IMG/VR virus record: IMGVR_UViG_3300020577_005857
Origin: an uncultured virus (IMG/VR IMGVR_UViG_3300020577_005857)
Taxonomy: Duplodnaviria; Heunggongvirae; Uroviricota; Caudoviricetes
DNA: 64,000 nucleotides
Strand: one strand, 5' to 3'
Below the pieces are notes generated by a model, which ran no database searches, was not told where the DNA came from, and worked only from the letters and a program-made list of their open reading frames with translations. Made by a program: the position numbers and the translations under genes. The first letter of the stretch is position 1. Each line of letters begins with the position of its first letter. This document shows, piece by piece, positions 49,685 to 60,577 of this stretch.

Positions 49685-49977
49685 TACCCCTTACCTCGAT
49701 TGTCAAAATTCTGGCGAAGCTGTTGCAATACCTCTACCGGCAGGATATCGCCTGCCCCCTTCAACATGCGGCCAAATGCTTCCTGACGGGCCACCTTGCG
49801 ATTGTTGGTATCCTTCGGATTGCGCCGTGAGTGGCCAGCAGCCACAACATCTCGAAGGGCTCTCCCATCAGAATTGAAAATCTTGTAAAGATAACAGTAA
49901 CCTTCGCTAGGTTTAGATTTGGGCCAATCAAAAGTAACCCACAAATTCTCGCCATTGTACTCAACTGGTTTGATCAT
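49684..49977 (-). CDS. Hypothetical phage protein
   Basis: GHSRRNPKDTNNRKVARQEAFGR pattern; GGAGG RBS. Confidence 0.5.
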   Translation of the reverse strand: MIKPVEYNGENLWVTFDWPKSKPSEGYCYLYKIFNSDGRALRDVVAAGHSRRNPKDTNNRKVARQEAFGRMLKGAGDILPVEVLQQLRQNFDNRGKG

Positions 49978-54415: not shown

Positions 54416-54679
54416 TCAGGCTTCTCCTTTAATTCGGTATCCAAATGTCTCCCCTTTCTTAAACGTTACTTCTTCCAAAGTCACACCTGCTACTGTAGCA
54501 AAGTGTTTGGCAATACCATGCACTAAGCTTACGCTTAGCTTAGTAAAGGCCTCCACATCTCCAGGCTGCTGCGGACCTGCCCATATCAGGGCGAATTGCA
54601 CACCCTCGGTGGTGAAAGTGAATTCAACCCTCGCAGTATTGCCGCTGGGAGCCATGAATACGAGCCTTGGCTCGTTCAT
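54416..54679 (-). CDS. Hypothetical protein
   Basis: GGAGG RBS. Confidence 0.5.
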   Translation of the reverse strand: MNEPRLVFMAPSGNTARVEFTFTTEGVQFALIWAGPQQPGDVEAFTKLSVSLVHGIAKHFATVAGVTLEEVTFKKGETFGYRIKGEA

Positions 54680-54807
54680 TCTTTGCCCTCCAGAGCCGCG
54701 ATTTGCGCCCGCAGCTTATCCCGCTTCTCTTCCGGCGTGGCCATCGCCTCGACTCTAATAAGGGGCGCACCTCATGAGAGGTAATCAGTGCCATAGTGGC
54801 TTCTCCT

Positions 54808-56280
54808 TTAAGCATACTTTTTGAGGGGAGTGTCCATGATTTCCTGATACAGACTGTAACGGTTTACCCGCATTGTCTGAACAAGATTTCCAATGCTGTA
54901 CTCATCCACAAATCCAGTAATCGGAAACTTCTCGAAAGGGATACTAGCGGCCTCCAGCTCATGAGTGATGACATCAGTGTCCCCATTCACTCTATAGTAA
55001 TAGACCGCATCCTCACGCTTGAGCCTTGCGGTAGTCTTCCGATACTCATGGCTGAAGGCCGGGTACGTATTGTGACCACCATCCGTGATCAGGGCAATGC
55101 CATCGAAATCCAAGCCTTGTGCGTTAGCGAACTCAAGCCCAGCACCCACAGAAGTGAAGCCATGAGGATTCAGAAGCCTCGTAAGCTCCTTGATCTCAGC
55201 AAGAGTCTTGCCTGTAACCTCACGCCCAAAAGCCTTGAAATTAAAGAACACGAGCCACACTCGGCCCTTTACCATACGCGCCAGTGTAGCAGATACTAAG
55301 CGGCCTATCTCAATGCTCGTCCGCATAGAGGCCGACATATCAGCTAAGACAAGCCAGTTGCCATCGATGCTCCCAGCTCCGAGCTTCCGCTCTTGAATCT
55401 GAGCCAAGGCTTCCTTCACATCTTCCTCTTCCACCATCTCCGCCGCCTTGCCAGCCTTAAACAGGTTCGCGTTGCCTTTGCTCTTAGCCAAGGCTTCAGC
55501 ATAGGCAGCCCTCACCGCTGTGTCCTTATCCATACCCCAGTGCTTCAAGACCTTTACACTATTCACAAGGTCCGAAGCACTCATGCTTTGGATCACGGCA
55601 ATGATTGCCGACGTGTTTCCCTTGATCTGGGGCATCACTGACGTGGCTACCAGAAACGGAATCTTATAGCGCATGATAGTACCCGCAGCCTCTACCGGGT
55701 CCATATTCGGAATCAGTTTGAGGGCACCTAATGCCCCACCCACCTCAGGCAGCTCTTCCCCTTTCAGCTTGAATCCAAGCATGGCAGCAGCCAAAGGACT
55801 GGGCTTCACATGGAAATCGACATACAGCTTCCGAAGGCTGGCCCTATGCTGCAAGACTGTCCGCTCCAGTCTAACGGGACTAGCTTCGATCTTACGGATG
55901 TAGGCCTCGGCCACTCGGCCAATACCTCTCCATGAAAGCCCAGCCTTCCAAGTCTTGGCCGCAACATGCTGCTTCACCAGTGTCTTGGCAAAGGCCACCG
56001 CCCGCACCAATTCACGTGGCCCTAATGCCATCAGGTGGCCATAGCTATTGGCAACTAGTTCGGGCTCCCGCGTAGCGGTGAGCCCCAACACAGGTAGGGC
56101 CACCTTAGCATCACGTATCTGTCCCTTTATATGATTCCAGGCCAAGAAATGATGAAAGAACAACGGATCACTCTTCATGGCCTTGTCTGCGATTGGGATG
56201 TATTCACTTAGGTCTCGGTGCGGGCTCTTATTCAGGACCGCTACCAGTTCATTGATATCGAAGGAGAGTTCTTGAGTCAT
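54808..56280 (-). CDS. Ro60/TROVE-like RNA-binding protein with C-terminal vWA domain
   Basis: About 490 aa; helical N-domain (DPLFF...IRD; MSASDLVNS); vWA MIDAS LADMSASM, T and ITDG; adjacent to structured tRNA-like RNAs. Confidence 0.75.
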   Translation of the reverse strand: MTQELSFDINELVAVLNKSPHRDLSEYIPIADKAMKSDPLFFHHFLAWNHIKGQIRDAKVALPVLGLTATREPELVANSYGHLMALGPRELVRAVAFAKTLVKQHVAAKTWKAGLSWRGIGRVAEAYIRKIEASPVRLERTVLQHRASLRKLYVDFHVKPSPLAAAMLGFKLKGEELPEVGGALGALKLIPNMDPVEAAGTIMRYKIPFLVATSVMPQIKGNTSAIIAVIQSMSASDLVNSVKVLKHWGMDKDTAVRAAYAEALAKSKGNANLFKAGKAAEMVEEEDVKEALAQIQERKLGAGSIDGNWLVLADMSASMRTSIEIGRLVSATLARMVKGRVWLVFFNFKAFGREVTGKTLAEIKELTRLLNPHGFTSVGAGLEFANAQGLDFDGIALITDGGHNTYPAFSHEYRKTTARLKREDAVYYYRVNGDTDVITHELEAASIPFEKFPITGFVDEYSIGNLVQTMRVNRYSLYQEIMDTPLKKYA

Positions 56281-56289
56281 ATATTTTTG

Positions 56290-56460
56290 CCGGGACACTG
56301 AGTTATCAGAAGCTTTATTGCTATTTTGCTACCCCCCCCCCCCCCACTAAAAGCTCCCTAAGAGCCCTTAGTGGAGGGGGCCGGACTCGAACCGGCAGTC
56401 TCATTCGTGAAATGAATGTGCTTTAACCGCGCTTGTATACTCCTGAAGAAAGCGCCCCGG
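56290..56460 (-). ncRNA. Y-RNA-like element containing a circularly permuted tRNA(UUC)-like domain
   Basis: Terminal stem CCGGGGCGCU/AGUGUCCCGG; inner stem UCAGGAGU/GCUUCUGA; anticodon arm CAUUC-AUUUCAC-GAAUG; T arm GCCGG-UUCGAGU-CCGGC; acceptor closed by a long hairpin. Confidence 0.7.
56332..56345. repeat. C14 (G14 on the transcribed strand) homopolymer
   Basis: 14 consecutive C. Confidence 0.9.
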
Positions 56461-56468
56461 ATATCTAA

Positions 56469-56534
56469 TGGCCGCAGAGTGATAGGAACTTTTCTTTGCA
56501 AGGAATGGCTTGTAGGTCCCTCTCGATGCGGCCA
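56469..56534 (-). ncRNA. Short Y-RNA-like hairpin element
   Basis: UGGCCGCA/UGCGGCCA terminal stem, internal loop with 3' AUCACUC, inner stem AGGGAC/GUUCCU. Confidence 0.5.
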
Positions 56535-56552
56535 AACTCTCAACCCAGATCA

Positions 56553-56659
56553 GGGTGGGGCAATGATTACTGCTTAAGCTACCTTATCTGTCGCCAAGTT
56601 AGTAGCCAAGACCGGAGGCAAGACCGGCCCCGGACGGCAGCAATCATTCATCCCCACCC
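56553..56659 (-). ncRNA. Y-RNA-like element with a 20-bp bulged terminal stem
   Basis: GGGUGGGG-AUG-AAUGAUUGCUGC pairs with GCAGUAAUCAUU-G-CCCCACCC and encloses two hairpins. Confidence 0.6.
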
Positions 56660-56816
56660 CTCAGCCTAATGCAGTTTCGGTGTAAGGAGACACCCACGGC
56701 TGAGCGACCTAGGATTTTTACTAGGAGGCGACTCTAAAACAGGTCTGAAGCCAACCAAAGCAGGACCATATTCTAAAGTCCCCACCTAGTAGACAACAAT
56801 GTTGCCTATAGGTGAG
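56660..56816 (-). ncRNA. Run of tandem hairpins within the RNA array
   Basis: CUCACCUA-UAGGCAAC/GUUGUCUA-C-UAGGUGGG; GACUUUAGAAUA/UGUUUUAGAGUC; CCUAG/CUAGG; CUCAGCC/GGCUGAG. Confidence 0.5.
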
Positions 56817-56958
56817 TGGGCGCTGAGTAAACCGAAGATTCATCCCCCAGGGTGTTACCCCTCAAGGACAAGACAGGACTCGAACCTGTAACCCTCTGAT
56901 CCGCATTCAGATGCTCTATCCACGTGAGCTACTTGTAGCTCCGGCGAAAAGCGCCCAC
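56816..56958 (-). ncRNA. Y-RNA-like element with embedded tRNA-Arg(GCG)-like cloverleaf
   Basis: Terminal stem GUGGGCGCU/AGCGCCCAC; inner stem CCGGAG/CUUCGG; cloverleaf at 56868-56936 with D arm, UCUGA-AUGCGGA-UCAGA, ACAGG-UUCGAGU-CCUGU; 5-bp acceptor; no CCA. Confidence 0.75.
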
Positions 56959-56964
56959 AAATCG

Positions 56965-56992
56965 AGTGTAGCACATTGTTGCACAATGTCAA
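56965..56992 (-). promoter_or_regulatory. Sigma70 promoter for the RNA array/Ro60 unit, with palindromic operator
   Basis: TTGACA-16 bp-TACACT with extended TG; palindrome ACATTGT-GCA-ACAATGT overlaps the -35 and spacer; predicted +1 coincides with the first RNA. Confidence 0.75.
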
Positions 56993-57012
56993 GCGAATTT
57001 TTTCTTCGCTTT

Positions 57013-57198
57013 TTATTCGCCTTTTGGTGGTCTCCCGAGGCGCTTTCCGTTTTTGCTCAGCGACGGCACGCGCCCCTCGGCACTCTTAATCTTAAGGACT
57101 CGGATCTCGTTTTCCAAATCCTTTTGTTGCTCAAGCATAGCTTGTATACGTAGCTTGAGACCCAATAAGGCCAGTTCTTTAAGATCTAATTCTTTCAT
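57013..57198 (-). CDS. Small coiled-coil protein with AT-hook-like tail
   Basis: MKELDLKEL...KRLGRPPK; AGGA RBS. Confidence 0.5.
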   Translation of the reverse strand: MKELDLKELALLGLKLRIQAMLEQQKDLENEIRVLKIKSAEGRVPSLSKNGKRLGRPPKGE

Positions 57199-57208
57199 AT
57201 ATTCCTTT

Positions 57209-58270
57209 CTACTCGACCACCACGTAATCCGCAGCCACTTCCACAGAGTCGCCGCCCCAGTTGAACGTAATGAACATAGGATTGAATGGCAACCCATCTC
57301 CATCCCATCCAGCTATGGCTGGTGTAGCTTCACGCCCCTTAATCCGCACATAGCCCTTGCCGATCCAGGGAGCCCGATGCTGGTTTGTATAGCGGCTGGG
57401 AATCGTCCGGTAAAAGATCCGCTTCCCGTTCTTGCCCCAAGGAATTCCGGTGAAAGAAAGTGTGAGGTAATCCTTGCCCCAAGTTTTGTCCGCGCCGGTT
57501 CCGCCCAATATGAAACGTGTAATCGCCCCACCAAAATACTTGGAGAGCCGAATCATTTTCTCCGTGGTGGTCTCCTTTGGGTAGAATCTGTCATAGGCAT
57601 TCAAATAGAAATCTAGGATCTCGTCATCCAGGTTCCCATGCCATTCTGGGATATGCCCCCGAATCCAATCTCCCCGCACAGCGCTTGACCTATTCATCGC
57701 CTCAAGGATAATCGGAGAATATGTTGCCACGGCCCTCCGAAAATCACTAGAATTCATGAGGAAGTCCTCCCGCCATATGGCAGAGCCGCCACCAAACATG
57801 AGAGTTTTATGCAATTTCTGGAAGTCCCTCACATAGAGATCCGTCTTCGGAATCCAGTCATCGCCGAACATGCTCTCATCAGTCAAGTTCTCAAGCCGGA
57901 TACGAATGTCCACCCCAGGTTTGTAGTGAGCGCACACCCTCCGCTCCAGGCATTCCAGTTGCTTCAAGGCCATGACATCAGCGATATCAACGCTGCCCTC
58001 ACCCTGTTTGCTGGCACCCCAGGGAATAAGGATGGGGATAGGTGCCCCAGCATCCATAGCCTTCCGCACCACGGCGCGTATCTCCACTAAGCCCTCCGGA
58101 TCAGGCATGGGTCCATATCGCTGCTGTTTTGTGCCGATCAGCTCAGACACCACAGCCTCGAACATGACTTTCTTGTCTCCATTGACGGCCCCCGGGAACT
58201 CCAGTTCCATCATCTGAAGTATTGTACCCAGATAAGGATCATCACTATTGGCGCTCAGCTTAAGACTCAT
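57209..58270 (-). CDS. DIT1/PvcA-family (isonitrile synthase-like) enzyme
   Basis: AGAPIPILIPWGASK, DIADVMALKQLECLERRVCAHYKPGVDIRI, LTLSF and APW align by eye with PvcA AGEPIEFVLPAFPAK, DMAERLSLSFL...YAPGAKITV, RLS and TPW. Confidence 0.6.
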   Translation of the reverse strand: MSLKLSANSDDPYLGTILQMMELEFPGAVNGDKKVMFEAVVSELIGTKQQRYGPMPDPEGLVEIRAVVRKAMDAGAPIPILIPWGASKQGEGSVDIADVMALKQLECLERRVCAHYKPGVDIRIRLENLTDESMFGDDWIPKTDLYVRDFQKLHKTLMFGGGSAIWREDFLMNSSDFRRAVATYSPIILEAMNRSSAVRGDWIRGHIPEWHGNLDDEILDFYLNAYDRFYPKETTTEKMIRLSKYFGGAITRFILGGTGADKTWGKDYLTLSFTGIPWGKNGKRIFYRTIPSRYTNQHRAPWIGKGYVRIKGREATPAIAGWDGDGLPFNPMFITFNWGGDSVEVAADYVVVE

Positions 58271-59419: not shown

Positions 59420-60577
59420 CTACCACAAAGTGTTTTTGTCCGCAGAGCTGGGGCCATTCGACACATATCGAATGCTTTCACCCAGCCTATCAAAGAAAAG
59501 CTCCTCCATTTCTTTGAAATTAGTAGGAATCCAACCCTCTCCGGCGTAGTCTACCCACTTCAGATCTTTTCCTGCCACGTCCCAGTGAGTCAAAGCAAAA
59601 TTGAAATTTCGAACTTTCTTAGTTTTCACAGTAGACGCAGCACGTGCAATAGCTAGGCTATACCGCAAAGCTTGGAAGTCCAGAAAACCTTGGCGGAATG
59701 CTCCTTGAAATTGTCCCCATTGATTGTGCTTCTCAGGAATTCGCTTGTCTGGCCTCCCCGGTGGATATTCGCTTGCAAATGGTCCGTGCCCATGCCGCGT
59801 CATGTAGGTTCGCGTAACCAATACCACTTCAGCATCGTAAACACTGCCGAGGGGAACCATGTCCAAAGCCCGTCTTGGTGTGCAGTCAGTCCAAGTGTTG
59901 TGCGGGGCCGTCCCCCAGGTTTCATCCAGCAAGATACCCTGTGCGCCCTCGAACACTACCTTATCCATTCGTCCCCATGGATCGACACCACGTTGCAACC
60001 TACTCGCGTACTCCTTCATTGTTTCCAGTACTTCATCAACCGAGGGCATATATCGCAGTAAGGTTGCATAGCACTCGCGAATGTCAACCAATATATTGCG
60101 AAGATCAGAAGTCCACAGATCTTTAATCCGTAGAGTAGGACGCCCGCCTAATTCCATCTCACGTGCGGCGCCAATTCCCATCCCGCAGCTTCCATGAGCC
60201 TTACACCCCCGGCCATCCTCCACATGTTTATTCCACATGCGGTGCCAAGGGGTAACTATTACCGCATTCATACTGACCCTTAGAAGATCCCAAGGATTCC
60301 AAGGAATCTTCCCCGATAACGCTTCTGCCTCACGTAAGGCCATCTCAGGGTCTACCAGCACATATGGACCCAGGTAGGTGGGAATGCCACGCAAGGTGGC
60401 ACTCCCCCATTGGGAAAATGTGTGGTGGACTCCATCATGGATAACGTTGTGGGCAGTCTGGGCACCACCATTGAAGCGGACTACCACGTCGGCCTTCATC
60501 TGGCCTGCCAAGTAATCCACCATGGTACCCTTGCCCTCATCGCCGAATCCAGCGCCCACTACAATTTTCGAAATCAT
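59420..60577 (-). CDS. Adenylosuccinate-synthetase-like (PurA fold) ligase, divergent
   Basis: GFGDEGKG, RFNGGAQTAH, HGSCGMGIG, FEGAQGILLD, TRHGHGPF, SNGP. Confidence 0.88.
   Translation of the reverse strand: MISKIVVGAGFGDEGKGTMVDYLAGQMKADVVVRFNGGAQTAHNVIHDGVHHTFSQWGSATLRGIPTYLGPYVLVDPEMALREAEALSGKIPWNPWDLLRVSMNAVIVTPWHRMWNKHVEDGRGCKAHGSCGMGIGAAREMELGGRPTLRIKDLWTSDLRNILVDIRECYATLLRYMPSVDEVLETMKEYASRLQRGVDPWGRMDKVVFEGAQGILLDETWGTAPHNTWTDCTPRRALDMVPLGSVYDAEVVLVTRTYMTRHGHGPFASEYPPGRPDKRIPEKHNQWGQFQGAFRQGFLDFQALRYSLAIARAASTVKTKKVRNFNFALTHWDVAGKDLKWVDYAGEGWIPTNFKEMEELFFDRLGESIRYVSNGPSSADKNTLW

Follow-up and report, generated by a model that had tools for sequence, protein, structure and literature searches.

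The window analysed here is the whole of a 64,000-nucleotide (nt) stretch of DNA from an uncultured virus (IMG/VR record IMGVR_UViG_3300020577_005857; Caudoviricetes), and the system in question is an array of three structured RNA units that lies directly upstream of an open reading frame (ORF) for a protein resembling Ro60. Numbering is that of the window, and all features of the array as well as the Ro-like ORF are on the minus strand, along which the order is promoter, unit 1, a 281-nt spacer, unit 3, unit 2, 10 nt, and then the ATG of the 490-amino-acid (aa) ORF. The features are as follows.

56965..56992, minus strand: strong promoter of the sigma-70 type, TTGACA-16-TACACT with a TG extension (10/12 matches)
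56816..56958, minus strand: unit 1, Y-RNA-like, GU-GGGCGCU-UUUCG-CCGGAG...CUUCGG-UUUACUC-AGCGCCC-AC
56950-56958 with 56816-56824, minus strand: terminal stem of unit 1, as read from the sequence and by RNAfold
56945-56949, minus strand: 5′ loop of unit 1, UUUCG
56939-56944 with 56832-56837, minus strand: second stem of unit 1
56864..56939, minus strand: cargo of unit 1, an unpermuted tRNA-like cloverleaf with anticodon GCG, followed by an extra hairpin
56825-56831, minus strand: 3′ loop of unit 1, UUUACUC, with ACUC at 56825-56828
56535..56815, minus strand: spacer between units 1 and 3, strongly structured and not a handle unit (minimum free energy -124.7 kcal/mol, z = -5.95)
56469..56534, minus strand: unit 3, minimal, consisting of the handle and a small hairpin, U-GGCCGCA-UCGAG-AGGGAC...GUUCCU-AUCACUC-UGCGGCC-A
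56509-56515 and 56477-56480, minus strand: CUACAAG and ACUC, respectively, of unit 3
56290..56460, minus strand: unit 2, Y-RNA-like, CCG-GGGCGCU-UUCU-UCAGGAG...CUUCUGA-UAACUC-AGUGUCC-CGG
56432-56438 and 56300-56303, minus strand: AUACAAG and ACUC, respectively, of unit 2
54808..56280, minus strand: putative divergent Ro60/Rsr orthologue of 490 aa, with a helical ring part and a vWA domain carrying a DMSAS MIDAS motif (MIDAS, metal-ion-dependent adhesion site)

Each unit has two stems, a terminal and a second one, with an internal loop between them that ends with ACUC; this arrangement, hereafter called the handle, encloses a variable cargo. The terminal stems are 7-10 base pairs (bp) long and close all three units in the RNAfold predictions (z = -3.47, -3.12 and -5.70 for units 1, 3 and 2, respectively). 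An initial annotation, made from the sequence letters, had described three minus-strand units sharing a terminal stem with an ACUC loop, in which the stem sequences vary while the pairing and the loop are kept. The sequences read as described, and the pairing of the terminal stems holds, the stems themselves being 1-3 bp longer than had been written. Direct reading likewise bears out the variation: the terminal stems of units 1 and 3 differ at two pairs, both compensated, and the second stems of the three units are all different, with pairing retained. Furthermore, each of the three second stems is followed directly on its 3′ side by a YUACAAG motif (56932-56938, 56509-56515 and 56432-56438). 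The initial annotation had passed over this motif, as well as the tRNA-like cargo of units 1 and 2, the promoter before unit 1 and the gene that begins 10 nt beyond unit 2. When both strands of the window (128 kb) were searched for the bare architecture (7-bp stem, ACTC and 5-bp second stem), 13 matches were obtained, among which clustering was limited to the three units, on one strand and within 670 nt. The array is thus more than a chance occurrence, because only these three of the 13 architecture matches cluster.

The ORF that follows the array encodes a helical part of about 300 aa and then a vWA domain with DMSAS and TDGG motifs, its ATG start being set by comparison with a 490-aa relative (P0002). 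It is unmatched in Pfam (P0001, no family at E ≤ 0.01), PHROGs and NCBIfam. A search of a large protein collection returned 168 relatives, 43 of which were aligned. Pfam TROVE is absent among the 25 families listed for these 43 members, 13 of which touch PF25045 (vWA_Ro60) with a best E of 2.8e-4, and five members compared with NCBIfam gave no relevant match (none at all for four of the five, and for P0007 a single unrelated weak one, RipC, at E = 0.081). The profile of the 43 homologues found human Ro60 at E = 0.0094 across both parts of the protein, and two TROVE chains at about 0.1. The MIDAS residues D320, S322 and S324 are invariant in the 43 sequences. The AlphaFold model of the protein has a mean predicted local distance difference test score (pLDDT) of 86.4, and when it was compared with the PDB using Foldseek, the best 12 matches were all Ro60, Rsr or TROVE chains, including phage Ro60, aligned over 500-556 columns with E from 4.7e-10 to 4.6e-07 and template-modelling (TM) scores of 0.51-0.63. 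Judging from the sequence and from the predicted model, we conclude that the product of 54808-56280 is a very divergent Ro60 orthologue, consisting of a HEAT-repeat ring and a vWA domain with MIDAS. The family has 1328 representatives at E ≤ 1e-3, 725 at 1e-10 and 397 at 1e-30. It was found on 76 viral contigs and, among one genome each of 185,579 species, only on six short contigs from metagenome-assembled genomes, and the clade looks phage-borne. A search of viral contigs with the single protein returned no relative, an alignment-based search being needed, and a metagenome scan yielded only a 1270-base C-terminal fragment and no close relative of the window's array.

The association of units with the Ro-like gene recurs across this family. 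Among the 81 fetched loci of relatives, 54 carry one to eight units of the same design. When a complete unit was defined by a regular expression (stem, ACUY and UACAnG), the counts over 68 distinct loci were as follows.

Upstream of the Ro-like gene: 125 complete units on the gene's strand, 1 on the opposite strand
Inside the Ro-like gene: 0 on the gene's strand, 2 on the opposite strand
Downstream of the Ro-like gene: 6 on the gene's strand, 2 on the opposite strand

Shuffled upstream regions contained 3.2 complete units, as against the 125 real ones, and 42 of the 68 loci hold between one and eight. In the window the units end 10-680 nt upstream of the Ro-fold gene, on the same strand, and in the relatives often no more than about 10-80 nt separate the end of the last unit from the point where the protein match begins. 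A covariance model (R1) was built from 18 short units, omitting a nested artefact (L030:2875-2942) and trimming one long stem. It gave 100 hits at E ≤ 0.01 in the 81 loci, 17 of them its own training rows; all 100 were on the strand of the Ro-like gene, 96 upstream and four downstream (the latter at locus L059). This model search, together with a structural alignment (see below), had been proposed along with the initial annotation as a way of checking it. On the window, R1 scored unit 3 at 31.9 bits, unit 3 being itself a training row. A weak R1 hit at 49852-49907 (E = 0.64) was dismissed, as it falls within a coding ORF that has a Shine-Dalgarno sequence and an ATG of its own. The design is also retained in the most distant of the relatives reached, LR756511.1 (locus L196), a 595-kb uncultured phage whose Ro-like protein is 26% identical to that of the window. 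There, an array of at least four units (L196:2020-2783) is situated upstream of the Ro-like gene, at a distance of about 700-1500 nt, with units that read S1, CCRACR, S2, UUACAAAC, cargo, ACUU, S1′ (S1 and S2 denoting the 5′ halves of the terminal and second stems, and primes their 3′ halves); UUACAA is kept, and one of the units encloses a 69-bit tRNA. A search by the DNA pattern GGGCGCTTT-gap-TACAAG matched at least 111 stretches of viral contigs, and none of the 80 loci fetched from it had ACUY with a matching stem half or a Ro-like gene.

The family consensus can be written as S1, YAC-UG, S2, YUACAYG, cargo, A-rich linker, S2′, CG-ACUY, S1′. In the alignment of the 18 short units, 84.6% of the stem cells are paired, compared with 50.7% in shuffles (none of 500 reached 84.6%); the covariation score is 0.861, compared with at most 0.273 when the partners are slid; and 12 of 12 pairs have changed on both sides. 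For the second stem, double changes were seen in five of five pairs and 80% of the cells pair. UACA-G is invariant in all 18 of these units. A scan that used no motif, collecting from 64 distinct loci any two-stem handle in the 1.5 kb before the gene, found ACTT 51 times and ACTC 21 times among the 898 4-mers preceding the 3′ half of the terminal stem, the next most frequent 4-mer occurring 11 times; on the opposite strand no 4-mer was enriched. Among 314 units defined by stem and UACA, the 4-mer before S1′ was ACUU in 71, ACUC in 20, ACAC in 19, ACUA in 17 and AUUU in 15, and the opposite-strand control gave 89 candidates with no 4-mer above 3. From the counts of ACUU, ACUC, ACAC and ACUA, therefore, AC is the invariant core, and the ACUC of the window is the local form of a family-wide ACUY. 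The 5′ loop differs between clades, being UACUG in the family, CCRACR in L196 and UUUCG, UUCU or UCGAG in the window, while ACUY and YUACA stay.

Units 1 and 2 share an identical 5′ stem strand, GGGCGCU, and one could suppose that the common ACUC is the inherited likeness of three recent duplicates and serves no function. Such an origin is already contradicted at the level of the family and seems to us scarcely credible, for over 100 units, spread over dozens of contigs and with stems that differ and covary, have the motif, which persists down to 26% protein identity and is present in the curated consensus of the bacterial YrlA RNAs.

The fourth base of ACUY is uniform in 25 of 30 multi-unit loci (e.g. 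ACUU in L018 and L025, ACUC in L011 and L044), in spite of differing stems. On the protein tree this base switches at least eight times, with at least four of the switches forced by well-supported branches. Uniformity within a locus could reflect recognition by the locus's own protein or, alternatively, concerted evolution. Comparison of protein columns with the fourth base provided four supported independent contrasts, too few for any column to reach significance.

The cargos of the three units are different. That of unit 1 scores 45.5 bits with the Rfam tRNA model over model positions 3-68 (gathering score 29 bits), and ARAGORN calls it Arg-GCG. The CUACAAG of the unit (56932-56938) doubles as the 5′ acceptor strand of this cloverleaf, whose acceptor has 5 bp and two mismatches, lacks CCA and runs into the handle at both ends. 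In spite of the score with the tRNA model, an ordinary tRNA was rejected as an identity for this cargo, which has neither a 7-bp acceptor nor a free 3′ end for CCA. Unit 2 holds a hairpin resembling an anticodon arm, a T arm and a long closed hairpin (56338-56396) that ends in a G run; T arm and sealed hairpin match the T-arm/acceptor part of permuted transfer-messenger RNA (tmRNA) models (32.3 bits), and there is no clear D arm. The G run after the sealed hairpin (56331-56344, minus strand) varies in length between public runs, being four bases longer in one RNA-library contig and two bases shorter in one DNA contig. Unit 3 has only a small hairpin and nothing of the permuted tRNA-like domain of YrlA. 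The initial annotation's notion of a modular design, a handle plus cargo, is supported.

It may be asked whether the units are simply cassettes for expressing or processing tRNAs and tRNA-likes, with the flanks forming a leader-trailer duplex and the Ro-like gene being a mere neighbour. The genes do sit in phage tRNA clusters, 106 ARAGORN tRNAs being present in 35 loci with Ro-like genes, and an ARAGORN-callable tRNA is held by 15 of 106 family unit entries (two of which are nested, leaving 14 distinct units) and by unit 1 of the window. Moreover, three units (L025:1098-1228, L027:2667-2792 and L076:2556-2680) enclose a full tRNA of 62-67 bits, whose first bases, directly 3′ of YUACA, are UG in every case and whose encoded 3′ end, NCCA, leads into the A-rich linker; these three may be real tRNAs expressed from within a Y-RNA handle. 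Against the cassette explanation, most tRNAs at the same loci have no handle (at L070, one of 20 has one), 18 units without any tRNA-like cargo still keep the handle and UACA-G, and most long units of the family have a permuted layout with a sealed acceptor, from which no tRNA can be produced. In addition, the units cluster directly before the Ro-like gene and on its strand, and the embedded anticodons AAU, AAA, ACU and GCG are unusual for decoding. On balance we regard the cassette explanation as improbable. As to the anticodons, AAU, AAA, ACU and UAU are seen in handle-embedded tRNA-likes such as those of L027, L031, L044 and L063, with GCG in the window. The free-standing tRNAs of the same clusters are ordinary looking.

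The promoter is the sole promoter-like site within 54600-57400 and lies 7 nt ahead of the first base of unit 1. Transcription is expected to start at about 56958, that is, at the first base of the terminal stem of unit 1. Between the array and the Ro-like ORF there is no terminator-like site with a real U tail. No Shine-Dalgarno sequence precedes the Ro-like ATG (56280), 10 nt past unit 2, and an in-frame GTG at 56298 falls inside the terminal stem of that unit; this arrangement may couple RNA folding or Ro binding to translation. A single promoter before unit 1, the missing U-tailed terminator, the closeness of unit 2 to an ATG that lacks a Shine-Dalgarno sequence and the similar closeness of the last unit in relatives would all suit an array acting mainly in cis, as a leader of the Ro-like mRNA whose handles titrate the protein or gate translation and are not released. 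As the whole explanation this is unlikely in our judgement: a leader alone would hardly account for up to eight units with differing tRNA-like cargos, L059 has four units downstream of the gene, and the known Y RNAs adjacent to rsr accumulate as separate RNAs, according to Chen 2014 (PMC4201824). A leader function can nevertheless coexist with a Y-RNA function of the units.

The spacer between units 1 and 3 folds into two large domains, one being a long stem (about 20 bp). Rfam contains no match to it, and blastn against the fetched loci of relatives found no relative of it. A divergent strain shows no substitution over 56286-56671, compared with 26 in 367 and 18 in 317 positions of the adjoining coding sequence. 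This fits selection acting on the RNAs, and recombination could look identical. Part of the spacer, 56535-56671, lies within the substitution-free stretch.

Taken together, these observations suggest that the three units are YrlA-type Y RNAs serving the phage's own highly divergent Ro60-like protein, an interpretation to which we assign a probability of roughly 70%. The analysis shows the architecture of the units, the protein's fold, the linkage over many phage contigs, covarying stems and two conserved motifs; from these we infer that the protein binds the units, that these are processed into separate RNAs and that the cargo has a role of its own. The promoter before unit 1 would give rise to a transcript containing the three units, the structured spacer and probably the Ro-like mRNA. 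The ends of each unit would pair into a docking handle, made up of the terminal helix, an asymmetric loop with ACUY on its 3′ side, the second helix and the YUACA junction, and the ring protein would bind this handle on its outer surface. ACUY and YUACA would be the conserved elements, read base-specifically or giving the handle its shape, with the helices free to vary. The handle could then present its variable cargo to host or phage factors that recognise the shape of a tRNA, and the cargo in the window would range from a tRNA-like cloverleaf (unit 1) over a T arm with a sealed acceptor-like hairpin (unit 2) to a bare hairpin (unit 3). The initial annotation had put the handle forward as a candidate Ro-binding site; as a candidate it is now supported by the adjacent ORF of Ro60/Rsr fold and by the tight linkage in relatives.

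A number of observations weigh against this interpretation. By the regular-expression definition, 26 of the 68 loci have no unit, and R1 misses units 1 and 2 of the window, whose cargo is beyond its span. Pairing of the terminal stem entered into the selection of the units, so that the second stem provides the only unbiased test of covariation. The 5′ loops of the window depart from the UACUG of the family, and concerted evolution could by itself produce the uniform fourth base within loci. With the Rfam YrlA model, unit 1 of the window reaches only 18.3 bits (E = 1.4; gathering score 69), and CGAA, the motif proposed for YrlA recognition, occurs in two of 106 family units and in none of the three window units, so docking may differ from that in known Ro ribonucleoproteins. 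Contigs from RNA libraries (two RNA-library and two DNA runs were used) cover the coding flanks and the RNAs alike and may derive from DNA. Finally, no close relative of the window's array was among the loci obtained, so that the conservation of ACUC holds for the family and not for strictly homologous loci.

A bolder proposal is that a large, phage-borne-looking Ro60 clade has moved recognition from the 5′ CGAA to ACUY and YUACA, and that its handle is a universal adaptor for tRNA-shaped cargos, CCA-ended tRNAs included, used for shielding, delivering or decoying tRNAs in infection. We consider this doubtful at present; if true, it could be of use against host nucleases that cut tRNAs.

The window as a whole looks like phage DNA, with genes for a PurZ-like enzyme, an exonuclease, an HNH protein and a kinase. 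The adenylosuccinate-synthetase-like gene at 59420-60577 (minus strand) matches a PurZ-type PHROG at 5.6e-62, which hints that the phage may substitute 2-aminoadenine for adenine in its DNA.

The closest reference system is YrlA (Rfam RF02553; Chen 2014, PMC4201824; structure in Wang et al. 2018, 10.1101/312249). Chen 2014 reports 254 bacteria and 22 phages with YrlA RNAs next to Ro60, proposes the 5′ motif GNCGAAN0-1G for recognition and describes YUAY as conserved after the stem. Like YrlA, the units described here lie upstream of a putative Ro60 orthologue, on the same strand and within about 4 kb, with several RNAs per locus; pairing of their 5′ with their 3′ ends forms a handle of two helices and an asymmetric internal loop; the second helix is followed by YUA(Y) (CUAC, AUAC and CUAC in the window); AC-U stands in the 3′ loop right before the closing helix; and the cargo is tRNA-like. 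The 5′ strand of the terminal stem in the family also retains a GGCG bias, as in YrlA. The Rfam YrlA model aligns to a family unit over its full length at 49 bits, placing ACUUG on aAaAcUuG and UUA on CUA. This best-scoring unit (L018:735-865, model positions 1-114) adjoins a tRNA-Ser about 2.1 kb upstream of the Ro-like gene. Because ACUUG aligns to AcUuG of the model, ACUY is already part of the curated YrlA consensus, although published work emphasises the other strand. The ACUC loop marks the docking stem throughout the family and is not the new kind of recognition motif that the initial annotation had taken it for; the real departure is on the 5′ strand, where CGAA is absent. Modularity is not new either, handle plus cargo being the standard description of Y RNAs in two reports (10.1101/312249, PMC4726728).

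Several features set the units apart from YrlA. Scores with the YrlA model stay below the gathering threshold of 69 bits (18.3 in the window, 49 for the best family unit), no window unit has GNCGAAN0-1G or CGAA on its 5′ strand, and the partner protein is not recognised by Pfam TROVE. The cloverleaf of unit 1 is unpermuted and has an anticodon arm, whereas the YrlA domain is permuted, comprising a T arm, a sealed acceptor hairpin and a D arm without an anticodon arm. Some family units, moreover, enclose CCA-ended tRNAs, and arrays reach up to eight units.

A second point of comparison is the Thermus phage phiLo (PDB 9KOP, 9L5Y), for which the report (PMC12135203) describes Yrl1 and Yrl2, found upstream via CGAA, and a three- to four-fold rise in dissociation constant (KD) for each single-base mutant of CGAA. 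Both phages have a Ro60 ring protein with Y-like RNAs immediately upstream, and the phiLo chain 9kop is the best structural match of the window protein, with an identity of about 14% over the structural alignment. They differ in that the phiLo RNAs depend on CGAA, which is missing in the window's units.

Vertebrate Y RNAs also carry AC-U-U before the closing helix. Their lower stem, as described in PMC4726728, has a helix of 7 bp, a bulged C and, on the opposite strand, a bulge of 3 nt. Taking that description as the reference, the likeness lies in a terminal helix (about 7-9 bp) after which unpaired 3′-strand bases distort the duplex. An internal loop takes the place of a single-base bulge in units 1 and 2 and in the family consensus, and the helix sequence is not conserved. 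Unit 3 can alternatively fold into an 8-bp helix, a UC bulge, a 3-bp GAG/CUC helix and a 4-nt bulge on the 3′ strand, which comes close to the classic bulged helix; units 1 and 2 cannot fold in this way.

Literature searches in a limited collection found no paper on this Ro-like clade or on a Y-RNA handle without CGAA. Both Y RNAs and Ro60 have been described in animals, in bacteria and in a small number of phages. Here, neither Pfam nor PHROGs nor NCBIfam recognises a Ro-like family that comprises several hundred clusters, and the RNAs partnering it are without the one motif by which the literature finds and explains Y RNAs. The system differs from published Y RNAs in the missing 5′ CGAA, in a protein clade that looks phage-borne and in a cargo that ranges from a bare hairpin to a CCA-ended tRNA. 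If the protein does read ACUY and YUACA, current searches would miss a large share of Y RNAs, and the series of cargos on one handle would amount to a natural experiment on what the cargo is for.

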